From Candidatus Berkelbacteria bacterium (lineage in GTDB: Bacteria > Patescibacteriota > UBA1384 > JACPKC01): a stretch of DNA of 64,000 bases. Each line of letters opens with the position of its first letter. Position 1 is the stretch's first letter. Both the position numbers and the translations under genes were made by a program. Below the pieces are notes generated by a model, which did not search any database, was not told where the DNA came from, and worked only from the letters and a program-made list of their open reading frames with translations. The stretch spans positions 67,541 through 131,540 of the forward strand of contig JACPKC010000010.1 in NCBI GenBank assembly GCA_016187225.1. Reading direction: 5' to 3'. Positions 60,461 through 62,230 of the stretch are shown in pieces.

Positions 60461-61237
60461 ATGAAAATTTTTTTCATCTTGTTAGCAGTTTTTTTTCTGG
60501 CGGGTCTGCCCACCAGTGCGCGTGGGTATTTGGTACCCGGCAAGAACCCGCAGTCGCCGGCGATCCGGAACGCGGGCAACGAAGTGACGGCGCTCCGGAT
60601 CGCCCAGGAGAAGGGCTGGCGGGTCTACCAGTTGCCCGTCAATACCTACGTGGGTAACTACGGCGCTTCCGGCGAGTTTGTCCGGGGTGTCTTGCCCAGG
60701 GGCGCCTGGATGGGCACAGACGGTACCCACGAGTACGTCGTGGGTTATACCGACGGCCGAGGGGTTTGGCGTGGGTGCGGAAACCTGACCGATCGCATCC
60801 CACCGCCGCCGCCAGTGCGCATTCCACCACCATCGCCGCCGAAGCCGCCGCCCCTCATCCCCTTCATACCGATCACTTCGGGTCTCGTGGTGACTCACGA
60901 GTGGCGGGGTGAGAAGAGTGGCGCGGCGACCGCCAGCGAGTTCTTAACTCGCAACCCGGTTCAAGCGCCGACTATTGTCGGGGATGCCAAGGTGAGCATC
61001 AGCCAGGTGCAAACCCAGGCTCAACCCCTGGCCTTCCCAGACTTTAATATTTCGGCTTTGTCTTCGGCAAACGCCGAAACCGGGCCGATCCAAAACAACA
61101 ACTCCGCCACCTCCCAGGCGAGTAACGTGAACACCGTGCCGATCGGTGTGAACACCGGGCCTGGGAGCGTGACGGTGACTGGGAGTGGCGCGGGTACGCA
61201 AACCGCGCCCACCCAGCAGAACAATTTGATCAGATAG
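60461..61237 (+). CDS. Secreted protein with polyproline linker and one C-terminal Q/N-rich repeat unit
   Basis: GGGAGG SD. Signal peptide MKIFFILLAVFFLAGLPTSA. IPPPPPVRIPPPSPPKPPP linker. C-terminal IQNNNSATSQASNVNTVPIGVNTGPGS... aligns with the repeats of the next gene. Confidence 0.55.
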   Translation: MKIFFILLAVFFLAGLPTSARGYLVPGKNPQSPAIRNAGNEVTALRIAQEKGWRVYQLPVNTYVGNYGASGEFVRGVLPRGAWMGTDGTHEYVVGYTDGRGVWRGCGNLTDRIPPPPPVRIPPPSPPKPPPLIPFIPITSGLVVTHEWRGEKSGAATASEFLTRNPVQAPTIVGDAKVSISQVQTQAQPLAFPDFNISALSSANAETGPIQNNNSATSQASNVNTVPIGVNTGPGSVTVTGSGAGTQTAPTQQNNLIR

Positions 61238-61271
61238 CAACAAGGAGGAGTTGCTGTCTGACAGAGTCTTA

Positions 61272-61329
61272 CCCCGAGCTTCGGCTCGGGGGATATTTCC
61301 TCTAGTCAAATCATGTTGACTGGAGGAAA
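61272..61329 (+). other. Two strong stem-loops in the leader of the repeat-protein gene
   Basis: ccccgagc-ttcg-gctcgggg (8 bp, UUCG loop, 61272-61291). tttcctctagtcaa-atcatg-ttgactggaggaaa (14 bp with one G-U pair, 61296-61329). No T-run follows either one. Confidence 0.6.
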
Positions 61330-61399
61330 GTATCAATTGAGGGCGTGCGCTGGTCGAAGCGGGCGAGAGTGCAAATATCGGAAAGGTGGTGAATAAACT

Positions 61400-62230
61400 A
61401 TGCAAAAATCTATCGCAATCGTTGCGTTTGCCTTGATGGTGACAGCTGGATCCTCAAGTGTATTCGCGGCGACCGTGCAAAATAACAACAGCTCTACGAG
61501 TCAGAGCCAGAACACTAACGCCGTTACAACGGTTGTTAATACTGGCAGTGGCTCCGCGGCTGGTTCAAGTAGTTCGGCGAGCGCCCAGGATTCGTCAACG
61601 AATCAATCGAACGAGAGGCAATCAACTTCGACTTCGCAAAGTTCGGGCACTGCGACTACAGGTTTGGTGCAAAATAACAATGTTAGCACCAGTCAAAGCC
61701 AGAACGTAAACGCCACCACAACGGTTGTTAACACCGGCAGTGGGAATGTGAGCGGCTCGGCGAGCGCCAGTGGCGGTCAAGCGTCAGAAACAACGCAAAG
61801 CAACTTTGCTTCTGGAAACAGCCAAAATCGGACCGAAAATAACAACAGTTCGATTAGCCAAAGCCAGAACGTGAATTGCGGCACAACCGTTGTCAATACC
61901 TCATCAGGTGATGCCTCTGGTGCGTGTGCGGCGGCAGGTAGCCAAACGGCAACTACGACACAGTCGAACACAACCGAACAGACTCAAACGAAAAAGAATG
62001 AGACCAAGATTGAACAAGCCCAATCAGTGGCACAAGCAACTTCAGTGGCTGGTGTTCCAACCACAACCACTCAAGTCCCGCCGGTTACAACCAAAACCGA
62101 GCTTCCGAAAGAGCTCCTGAAGACGGGTGCAAATACGGTTGCTCTCGCGCTTGGTAGCGCAGTGATCTCAGCCGGTGGCGCAGCATTCGCTCGTCGCAAG
62201 CAGATGGTCGCAGATCTCATCGTTGGCTAA
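61400..62230 (+). CDS. Secreted Q/N/S/T-rich protein with three 45-46-aa repeats and a sortase-signal-like C-terminus
   Basis: Signal peptide ...SSSVFA. Repeats VQNNNSSTSQSQNTNAVTTVVNTGSG..., VQNNNVSTSQSQNVNATTTVVNTGSG..., ENNNSSISQSQNVNCGTTVVNTSSG.... Tail is LLKTGAN + TM + ARRKQ. Confidence 0.7.
   Translation: MQKSIAIVAFALMVTAGSSSVFAATVQNNNSSTSQSQNTNAVTTVVNTGSGSAAGSSSSASAQDSSTNQSNERQSTSTSQSSGTATTGLVQNNNVSTSQSQNVNATTTVVNTGSGNVSGSASASGGQASETTQSNFASGNSQNRTENNNSSISQSQNVNCGTTVVNTSSGDASGACAAAGSQTATTTQSNTTEQTQTKKNETKIEQAQSVAQATSVAGVPTTTTQVPPVTTKTELPKELLKTGANTVALALGSAVISAGGAAFARRKQMVADLIVG

Follow-up and report, generated by a model that had tools for sequence, protein, structure and literature searches.

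Three genes lie in series at this locus, which we designate X, A and B, within the 64-kb window (the whole stretch of Candidatus Berkelbacteria DNA that was analysed). The reading frames of A and B are as the initial annotation had described them. The features of the locus are as follows.

59541-60455, + strand: gene X (304 aa, from the ORF list), orphan protein that opens the cassette, with a hydrophobic anchor or signal at its N-terminus
60461-61237, + strand: gene A (258 aa, from the ORF list); signal peptide, orphan N-domain, Pro-rich linker, middle region and one C-terminal unit
60548-60796, + strand: N-terminal globular domain of A (aa 30-112)
60797-60868, + strand: Pro-rich linker of A (aa 113-136), sequence RIPPPPPVRIPPPSPPKPPPLIPF
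61088-61225, + strand: A unit, a single 46-aa module (aa 210-254/255, 61088-61222/61225), followed by 3 residues and the stop
61272-61334, + strand: structured A-B intergenic RNA with a terminator-like match; GC-rich hairpin (61272-61291), then a second hairpin to ~61334
61400-62230, + strand: gene B (276 aa); signal peptide, three 46-aa units, degenerate half unit and stalk, LPXTG-type sorting signal
61400-61468, + strand: B signal peptide (aa 1-23, ...SSSVFA/AT), recognised by inspection, with a motif LMVTAGSS(S/T) conserved in B homologues
61475-61612, + strand: B unit 1 (aa 26-71), no Cys, distal from the predicted wall anchor
61667-61804, + strand: B unit 2 (aa 90-135), no Cys
61832-61969, + strand: B unit 3 (aa 145-190), with a Cys pair, C160 (61877-61879) and C176 (61925-61927), at columns 16 and 32
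61970-62113, + strand: degenerate half unit and Thr/Pro-rich stalk (aa 191-238), from the alignment of B proteins
62114-62227, + strand: cell-wall sorting signal; LLKTG (62114-62128), hydrophobic segment, ARRKQ and a conserved ADLIVG end

The X-A-B cassette lies between cysS and prfB in ~13 Berkelbacteria/Patescibacteria loci, as a variable secreted X followed by A and then B, and it is restricted to this lineage. The neighbours in six loci are cysS, the orphan X, prfB, ybaB and pth. A survey of the genomic neighbourhood of homologues, which the initial annotation had proposed, found a single-unit A next to a multi-unit B in every locus with enough readable downstream sequence (the window, L001, L004, L006, L009, L010, L011, L012, L013/L017, L019 and the P0013 contig). 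X, the hypothetical protein HYW32_03410 in NCBI, has no Pfam or NCBIfam match, and its stop codon is separated from the start of A by 5 nt in the window. A gene also occupies the X position in L006, L009, L010, L011, L012, L014, L017 and the P0013 contig, where it abuts A or overlaps it by 4 nt, and its sequence varies from lineage to lineage. Lineage change falls on the A N-domain and on the X protein, while the unit and B persist. Between A and B, the two-hairpin layout of the spacer recurs in 10 loci. The pyrimidine tract that follows the first hairpin is the 5' arm of the second, in which 10 of the 11 pairs keep pairing through double changes (RNAalifold). The spacer has no Rfam match. From its conserved hairpins, A and B would be expected to differ in transcript level.

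The four repeat units that had been noted in the initial annotation, one in A and three in B, are real: at the positions given above they align without gaps, and each is 46 aa long. Without gaps, the A unit is 46-50% identical to the B units, which are 59-70% identical to one another, and the pairwise local alignment scores of the units lie 10-16 SD above composition-matched shuffles. The units therefore match by position, and the similarity is no artefact of composition. Nucleotide identity between units is only 50-63%, different codons are used at ~45% to 65% of the identical residues, and Tandem Repeats Finder reported no repeat at the DNA level. The units are thus old duplications maintained at the protein level. 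Furthermore, one ungapped frame of 46 columns fits 32 units from ~10 loci, with invariant residues at N3-5, N13, N22, T23, G26, Q38, Q44 and N46. This frame and its invariant columns answer the initial concern that the repeat might be low-complexity sequence with no positional conservation in homologues. In columns 26-46 every second residue is conserved (mean entropy of 0.60 bit at even columns vs 2.22 bit at odd columns), the pattern of a single long beta-strand that is conserved on one face.

N, S, T, A, G, Q and V make up the units, and large hydrophobic residues are nearly absent. K, R, H, Y and M are missing altogether and aromatic residues are very rare, a composition that argues against catalysis or glycan binding. 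We also considered a catalytic or cross-linking role for the unit (isopeptide or ester bond) and rejected it, given the absence of Lys and His and the few acidic residues at conserved columns.

Neither A nor B matched a Pfam family at E<=1, and searches of PDB sequences with the unit profile and with A returned nothing meaningful. Profile searches with the repeat gave no confident match to any known family, fibrous or not, and the initial impression that it belongs to no named family agrees with the lack of Pfam, NCBIfam and PDB matches. The 46-residue module, predicted to form beta-strands, is a previously undescribed family. Among 1.84 billion representatives, it is confined to the cassette proteins; the A unit scored 71.7 bits (E 4e-15) when the unit profile was run against the 1.84 billion proteins. 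Two further matches were set aside. P0010, a eukaryote-like protein of 1188 aa, was judged spurious, and P0014, which matches the central part of the unit only (E 7e-4) and has another gene context, was judged marginal.

The B proteins behave differently in different searches. Window B and three B homologues score E 1e-25 to 5e-50 when searched with the unit profile (hmmsearch), and window B alone reaches 183.6 bits (local hmmsearch). A word-indexed protein search with B and with a 15-unit alignment returned no matches, and an exact look-up showed that B, L011_B and L012_B are absent from the large protein collection. That B is strong by hmmsearch yet missing from the collection points to a database gap and is no evidence of absence. 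Scans for the DNA pattern found two loci in 185,579 species genomes and three in JGI metagenomes. Since B-type proteins could not be found in the large protein collections, low-complexity surface proteins of this sort are easily overlooked by family surveys.

Homologues of B could be read from L004, L006, L009, L010, L011, L012, L013 and L019, and carry two to three units. Sec-type hydrophobic signal sequences were identified in A and B by inspection, and unit 1 of B begins two residues past the presumed cleavage site. The alignment of B proteins also revealed a conserved remnant (similar to ..TSQ.QNV..S.VVA.A) after the last full unit. The first K/R of mature B appear in this half unit and stalk, after the unit region. 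B had been described as a plain secreted protein; its signal sequence holds, but the view that it is simply secreted does not, as a C-terminal LPXTG-type sorting signal had been missed. All seven B homologues with a readable C-terminus have ELPKTGA[ND], a TM segment and then R/K residues. In window B the motif is LLKTG instead of LPKTG, with the codon CTG one base away from CCN. Two NCBIfam sorting-signal models score window B (aa 241-268) below threshold: TIGR01167 (LPXTG_anchor) at 12.5 bits for a cut-off of 15.9, and the NPXTG anchor at 14.1 for a cut-off of 23.5. B carries a predicted sorting signal, through which it would be covalently anchored to the wall.

More than half of CPR genomes encode a sortase family, and disulfide oxidoreductases of the MdbA-like type are, as sortases are, widespread in the group (PMC6744442). 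A regex scan of the 64-kb window and the fetched flanks of the loci found no TLxTC-type sortase candidate. The sole match to the sortase motif was an 86-aa reading frame in L006, which was set aside. The LLKTG of the window and the lack of a sortase in the window or fetched flanks count against wall anchoring.

The product of gene A is identical to the NCBI hypothetical protein HYW32_03415 (Candidatus Berkelbacteria), and its homologues are P0002-P0004, P0006-P0009 and P0011-P0013. Cys106 of the N-domain, in a CGN motif (nt 60776-60778), is invariant in the family, and a Pro-rich stretch follows this motif in most homologues. The initial reading of A as a small fibre subunit fails, as ~200 aa (four fifths of the protein) are non-repeat cargo made up of the globular N-domain, the Pro-rich linker and the middle region. 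The unit-bearing A-type proteins have at least three different types of N-domain, all with the unit at the extreme C-terminus and no other anchor.

The conservation of the unit also informs its probable fold. The initial annotation had pointed out that only the third repeat of B carries two Cys (C160 and C176); this was borne out, and the pair falls at the same two columns in every homologue. Across eight B proteins, Cys occupies both columns 16 and 32 in 11 of 22 units and one column alone in none. The units with this pair are always wall-proximal and are never unit 1 or A units. Columns 16 and 32 are also the top covarying (MI) pair, and a size swap from V20.A28 to G20.V28 occurred in two different A lineages. 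Both pairs, 16/32 and 20/28, satisfy i+j=48 around a T23-G24-S25 turn, which is evidence for a strand-turn-strand register. Consistent with this register, AF2 predicted two long strands per unit in B. Its confidence was highest in unit 2 (pLDDT 70-76), where the alignment is deepest; the alignment for B was deep over this unit only. The predicted strands of unit 2 are E74-88 and E94-113 in the construct of B aa 24-243, which correspond to B aa 97-111 and 117-136. At equal alignment depth, AF2 predicted no secondary structure for the A unit (pLDDT <50). The whole models of the two proteins have low confidence (pLDDT 54 and 57), and nothing in the analysis shows amyloid or fibre formation by A and B, which had been initially proposed as a fibre/amyloid-like subunit pair. 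We infer that the units stack and that Cys16 and Cys32 form a disulfide.

These features are consistent with a model in which a Berkelbacteria-specific X-A-B cassette, inserted between cysS and prfB, serves the cell surface. In this model, wall-anchored B consists of stacked strand-turn-strand rungs, to which A docks by contributing one more. We assign to this docking model, taken as a whole, a probability of roughly 45%. B would be exported via Sec, and a sortase would then use its C-terminal L(P/L)KTG to join it covalently to the wall. Each B unit would form a long strand, an NTGSG turn and another long strand in the i+j=48 register, and the two to three units would stack in register to generate ladders of the invariant Asn and Gln columns. 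The Cys16-Cys32 disulfide would lock the wall-proximal unit or units, and the degenerate, charged half unit would cap the wall-proximal end of the stack. A would be exported separately, its lone C-terminal unit being unstable alone and folding onto the open distal end of the B stack. Once docked, A would hold its variable N-domain, and perhaps a translationally linked X, at the cell surface. The docking of A on B and any role in host contact are likewise inferred.

The A units differ systematically from the B units at five columns. The window A unit is the most divergent (T16, G20, V28 and V30), an observation that counts against docking. So does the state of the A unit in two lineages, where it is degenerate (H41) or cut to 38 residues (L019) beside canonical B units. 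The A unit of L001 and the first unit of its B have a common derived variant, with 83% identity at the amino acid level vs 66% at the nucleotide level and the same codon at 15 of 35 identical residues. This suggests a shared constraint and argues against recent gene conversion. Genome-specific co-evolution of A and B was rejected as a general rule: outside L001, the A units form their own class (P16, G34, G39 and G45) and resemble A units from other genomes more closely than the B units encoded beside them, a pattern that counts against docking.

A templated fibre, the functional-amyloid reading, is improbable. Here the anchored B would nucleate the assembly and many A proteins would add their C-terminal units, one on another, to build a cross-beta spine decorated with N-domains, similar to chaplin or curli fibres that start from an anchored subunit. 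However, the ~200-aa non-repeat region of each A would crowd such a fibre, and the five-column difference between A and B units counts against it. The absence of curli homology and of a Pfam chaplin match, the low AF2 confidence, and a cassette devoid of accessory secretion or chaperone genes also speak against it.

We consider it improbable as well that the unit binds a wall or surface polymer, as LysM, SLH, GW and choline-binding repeats do, without contact between A and B. In secreted proteins that lack any other anchor and have at least three types of N-domain, a unit at the very C-terminus would suit such a role, as this is the usual site of non-covalent wall-binding modules, and the co-divergence of A and B in L001 would also follow from a common ligand. 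However, B already has a sorting signal for covalent anchoring, and the units, with no basic and almost no aromatic residues, do not resemble known glycan- or teichoic acid-binding repeats. Furthermore, Gly, Ala, Val, Cys, Gln and Asn make up the conserved face, as is typical where proteins pack against each other.

It is likewise improbable that the units serve as a rigid spacer in B and as a homologous tail in A (for example, for self-association of A), again with no contact between the two proteins. Many LPXTG proteins do have repetitive stalks, the A units are a class separate from the B units, and the A gene is kept in the two lineages with a degenerate or truncated unit. A purely structural rod leaves unexplained the confinement of the module to cassette proteins, the constant adjacency of A and B, and the retention of all ladder columns in most A units. 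Lastly, a merely compositional similarity or mis-called genes, as the strong bias to S, T, N, Q, A and G and the empty protein-database searches with B might suggest, is very improbable and refuted by the shuffle scores, the 32-unit frame, the conservation of the proteins between loci despite diverged codons, and the conserved signal peptide and sorting signal.

The prevailing view is that CPR bacteria live on other cells and, type IV pili aside, there is to our knowledge hardly any information on the proteins of their surface. For Berkelbacteria, the cassette provides a small, well-defined surface structure that can be tested, with a predicted wall anchor, a 46-residue module of clear sequence logic and exposed cargo domains that vary among lineages. 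If templated docking is true, stacks of identical beta-rungs would have arisen a third time, independently of curli and chaplins, as a means to tether a secreted protein to an anchored partner, and the unit would be a compact, hydrophilic and Lys-free docking tag. More speculatively, and in our estimate unlikely, the cassette may represent a new templated assembly of hydrophilic Asn/Gln ladders in CPR bacteria, in which the anchored, disulfide-locked B (two to three rungs) nucleates the rung of one or many A proteins, and the resulting stalk or fibre displays the rapidly diversifying domains (X and the N-domain of A) with which the episymbiont attaches to its host. The principle of chaplins and curli would in that case have been invented independently in a third, unrelated protein family.

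The initial annotation had compared the gene pair, as an analogy only, to CsgB and CsgA of curli. The pairing of a single-unit protein with a multi-unit one is indeed conserved, and there is no homology to curli. The Curlin repeat (PF07012) is S-X5-Q-X-G-X-G-N-X-A-X3-Q, ~22 aa long, vs 46 aa in the cassette. PF07012 (Curlin_rpt) gave no Pfam match at E<=1 for A or B, and hhalign of the unit profile against repeats R1-R5 of E. coli CsgA returned a probability of 0.1%. We also found no csgE/F/G-type secretion or assembly genes among the listed Pfam families of the neighbours in six loci. In contrast to curli, the cassette belongs to a bacterium with no outer membrane, has a sortase-signal anchor and places the single unit in a protein with a large extra domain.

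B resembles LPXTG substrates (TIGR01167 type), such as the rod-like repeat adhesins SasG and Aap, in its signal peptide, repeats and Thr/Pro-rich wall-spanning stalk, and its homologues share with them the LPKTG, hydrophobic segment and basic tail. It differs in the LLKTG of the window, in the ~10 conserved residues (..ADLIVG) past the basic residues and in its new repeat family. The cassette also recalls cohesin-dockerin systems, where an anchored scaffold receives secreted cargo with a short C-terminal docking module, the cargo varying and the module being conserved. However, the docking module of the cassette would be the scaffold module itself, one cargo is seen per genome, and there is no relation in sequence or fold.

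Streptomyces chaplins (Pfam PF03777) comprise the long ChpA-C and the short ChpD-H. Long chaplins are sortase-anchored and have two domains, whereas short chaplins have one (PMC3079736). The anchored long form is believed to fasten the assembly to the cell wall (PMC3079736). PF03777 gave no Pfam match at E<=1 and there is no sequence similarity; the likeness is in architecture only. The chaplin domain has a conserved Cys pair; the unit of the cassette has one at fixed columns (16 and 32), in wall-proximal B units only. The chaplin domain (~40 aa) is hydrophobic and the cassette unit hydrophilic, the short chaplin partner is a 5-kDa peptide whereas A has ~200 aa of cargo, and the host is an actinomycete in one case and a CPR bacterium in the other. 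In both systems, one protein with a C-terminal sortase signal has at least two copies of a domain of the ~40-aa class, and its secreted partner has a single copy. On architecture, long and short chaplins are a better analogy for the cassette than curli.

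The cassette genes X, A and B lie on the forward strand of a Candidatus Berkelbacteria (CPR) contig, between cysS and prfB (window coordinates):

55008–56225, +, cysS
56345–59434, +, 1029-aa orphan with membrane segments, 3' of cysS and 5' of X
59541–60455, +, X, 304 aa
60461–61237, +, A, 258 aa (unit at aa 210–255)
61238–61399, A–B spacer (hairpins at 61272–61291 and ~61292–61334)
61400–62230, +, B, 276 aa (units 1, 2 and 3 at aa 26–71, 90–135 and 145–190)
62114–62128, LLKTG sorting motif of B (codons CTC CTG AAG ACG GGT)
3' of B, +, prfB, then ybaB

The product of A is identical to the NCBI hypothetical protein HYW32_03415. 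The 1029-aa orphan, which had no Pfam or NCBIfam match and gave a negative exact look-up in the protein collection, is limited to the genome of the window. The initial annotation had reported a repeat shared by A and B, an observation that is confirmed and extended here. All four units were found precisely where it had placed them, and the near column-for-column alignment it described proved to be gap-free. Unit-to-unit alignment scores exceed those of same-composition shuffles by 10–16 SD and, thus, the match is positional rather than compositional. Nucleotide identity among the four units is only 50–63%, identical residues often differ in codon, and Tandem Repeats Finder detected no DNA repeat over the units. 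This indicates that the copies are ancient and held by selection on the protein. The GC content rises to 57% over A and B (60001–62000) versus 44–50% elsewhere in the window, probably due to Gly/Ala/Pro/Ser/Thr-rich coding.

The unit is not low-complexity sequence lacking positional conservation in homologues, as 32 units fit one ungapped frame of 46 columns with invariant (N3–5, N13, N22, T23, G26, Q38, Q44 and N46) and near-invariant (Q10, G30 and G36) positions. K, R, H, Y and M are absent from the units, and aromatic residues are very rare. In columns 26–46, even positions are conserved and odd positions are free (mean entropy of 0.60 versus 2.22 bit), a contrast that indicates a putative ~20-residue beta-strand conserved on one face (G-A-G-x-x-G-Q-x-T-Q-N). 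Cysteines in the units of eight B proteins are confined to columns 16 and 32, occurring together in 11 of 22 units and never singly. The pair is carried by the wall-proximal unit(s) of B only and is absent from unit 1 and from A, where column 16 is usually Pro. Columns 16 and 32 also covary most strongly, and a V20.A28 to G20.V28 swap occurred in two unrelated A lineages. Both pairs satisfy i+j=48, which suggests that the unit halves oppose each other about a T23-G24-S25 turn, in the manner of a hairpin or a beta-arch rung. Mature B begins directly with unit 1 in four loci, and in every B a degenerate half unit follows the last full unit. The half unit bears the first basic residues of mature B past the unit region and may, given that none occur within units, serve as a cap.

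An exhaustive HMM search with the 46-aa profile against 1.84 billion representative proteins returned only 12 proteins at E ≤ 1e-3. Nine (including the A of the window) are secreted A-type proteins of 203–342 aa with exactly one unit, at the C-terminus, and one (P0005) represents the N-terminal portion of a B homologue. P0010 was rejected as spurious, and P0014 was set aside as marginal. The latter (193 aa; L015 221–802 and L016 209–790) lacks a signal peptide, sits in another gene context and matches the unit in its central portion alone (ISQPQNINPVNIGVNTGSGTATGA; E 7e-4). P0002 and P0003, two more proteins of A type, were recovered with A itself as the query. At least three types of N-domain occur among the A-type proteins, and all contain an invariant Cys. 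The contigs of relatives have the constant order cysS, X, A, B, prfB, ybaB, pth, and multi-unit B follows single-unit A in every locus with enough readable sequence. X is a secreted orphan (289–418 aa in relatives) that abuts A or overlaps it by 4 nt in most loci, and the A–B gap is ~150–210 nt. The unit and B are conserved across lineages, in contrast to X and the N-domain of A. One lineage has an additional secreted protein of 97 aa between A and B (L010, 2392–2685), whose C-terminal unit is degenerate (..MQNNSTSSQAQNQSIAPVIRINTGD..).

The 15-billion-protein collection contains none of the full-length B proteins encoded in the window, L011 and L012, although gene calls exist at the B positions of L011 and other loci. 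Protein surveys based on this collection are therefore blind to multi-unit B, and the rarity of the family rests on DNA-pattern scans. The scans, run on 185,579 species genomes and on JGI metagenomes, contributed no more than one MAG each of Berkelbacteria and Patescibacteria plus two contigs. The cassette is present in every one of them, and ~13 lineages carry it overall.

In every locus (window, L001, L004, L006, L009, L010, L011, L012, L013 and L019), the A–B spacer is highly structured; it had no match in Rfam. Hairpin 1 is GC-rich and is followed by a pyrimidine tract, the 5' arm of hairpin 2, whose 3' arm is a purine-rich tract; next come hairpin 3 and a ribosome-binding site (GGTGGTGA). 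RNAalifold showed that pairing in hairpin 2 is kept through double changes at 10 of 11 pairs. The spacer could be a terminator and a leader for B.

B had initially been described as merely secreted, overlooking the sortase-type sorting signal predicted at its end (...TELPKELLKTG-ANTVALALGSAVISAGGAAF-ARRKQMVADLIVG) from its motif, hydrophobic stretch and basic tail. The anchor models of NCBIfam scored it just below threshold (LPXTG_anchor, 12.5 bits with a cut-off of 15.9; NPXTG, 14.1 with a cut-off of 23.5). In all seven B homologues with a readable C-terminus, a canonical ELPKTGA[ND] aligns with the motif. The LLKTG of the window differs from their LPKTG by one base (CTG versus CCN) and may reflect genuine variation, decay of the signal or an error in the assembly. 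B tails (62189–62227; L006, L009–L013 and L019) run ~10 residues past the basic stop-transfer residues, longer than usual for LPXTG, to a conserved A(D/Q)LI(V/L)(G/S). A 550-aa PKD-domain protein (28894–30546, −) likewise ends in a tail resembling a sorting signal, here with a non-canonical motif: VKLASSGAN, a hydrophobic stretch and RRPFHGNE. The '[ST]GAN' it has in common with B hints that the sortase of this organism may accept L-x-x-[ST]-G. Sortases and MdbA-like disulfide oxidoreductases are common in CPR genomes (PMC6744442), making anchoring of B and an extracellular disulfide plausible. The window also contains type IV pilus assembly genes (PilN and PilO homologues, 33147–34389, +).

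A is not a small subunit: its signal peptide is followed by an N-domain, then by a Pro-rich linker and a middle region with little conservation, and the unit occupies the extreme C-terminus. AF2 folded the 80-residue N-domain (pLDDT 67–93) into one main helix, one short helix and six strands. The domain terminates in the family-invariant Cys, within a 'CGN' motif, and had no match among Pfam, NCBIfam, PDB sequences or PDB folds. For mature B (mean pLDDT 53.9; an alignment that is shallow and deep over unit 2 only), AF2 predicted two long strands per unit, with confidence peaking at 70–76 in unit 2. The lone unit of A was predicted unstructured (pLDDT below 50) at an alignment depth equal to that of B unit 2. 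These predictions would fit units that need stacking in order to fold, the confidence being too low for proof.

The best-supported reading, which we infer from the combined evidence, is that B forms a wall-anchored stack that would receive A through its lone unit. The genes for A and B always co-occur, the unit is found in no other proteins, and its conserved face has the chemistry of protein–protein packing, unlike a ligand site. In L001, the A unit and first B unit carry the same derived variant (83% aa but only 66% nt identity). Against docking, A units outside L001 constitute a separate class that does not follow the B of the same genome, the A unit is degenerate or shortened in two lineages, and a motif scan of the 64-kb window and the available loci revealed no sortase. 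The A–B interface is putative. Rival explanations are templated fibre growth, a wall-binding module common to A and B, and a purely structural stalk. The fibre/amyloid-like subunit pair originally proposed is partly supported: the module family is new, and fibre or amyloid formation is hypothetical.

Pfam, chaplin and Fap families included, had no match at all for A or B, in agreement with the initial view that the repeat belongs to no named family. The Pfam search and a comparison with curli repeats ruled out a curli repeat, and the chaplins are a better analogy than CsgB/CsgA. The unit is a new, very narrowly distributed module family with a putative function in a known type of architecture. 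The closest known system in architecture is the chaplins. Long chaplins combine two ~40-aa domains with a sortase signal, short ones have a single such domain, and two Cys are conserved in the domain (PMC3079736). Similarly, B has several units and a predicted sortase signal, and A has one unit. Unlike chaplins, however, the unit is hydrophilic, single-unit A bears a large cargo, the Cys pair is restricted to wall-proximal units, and the hosts are Berkelbacteria (CPR).
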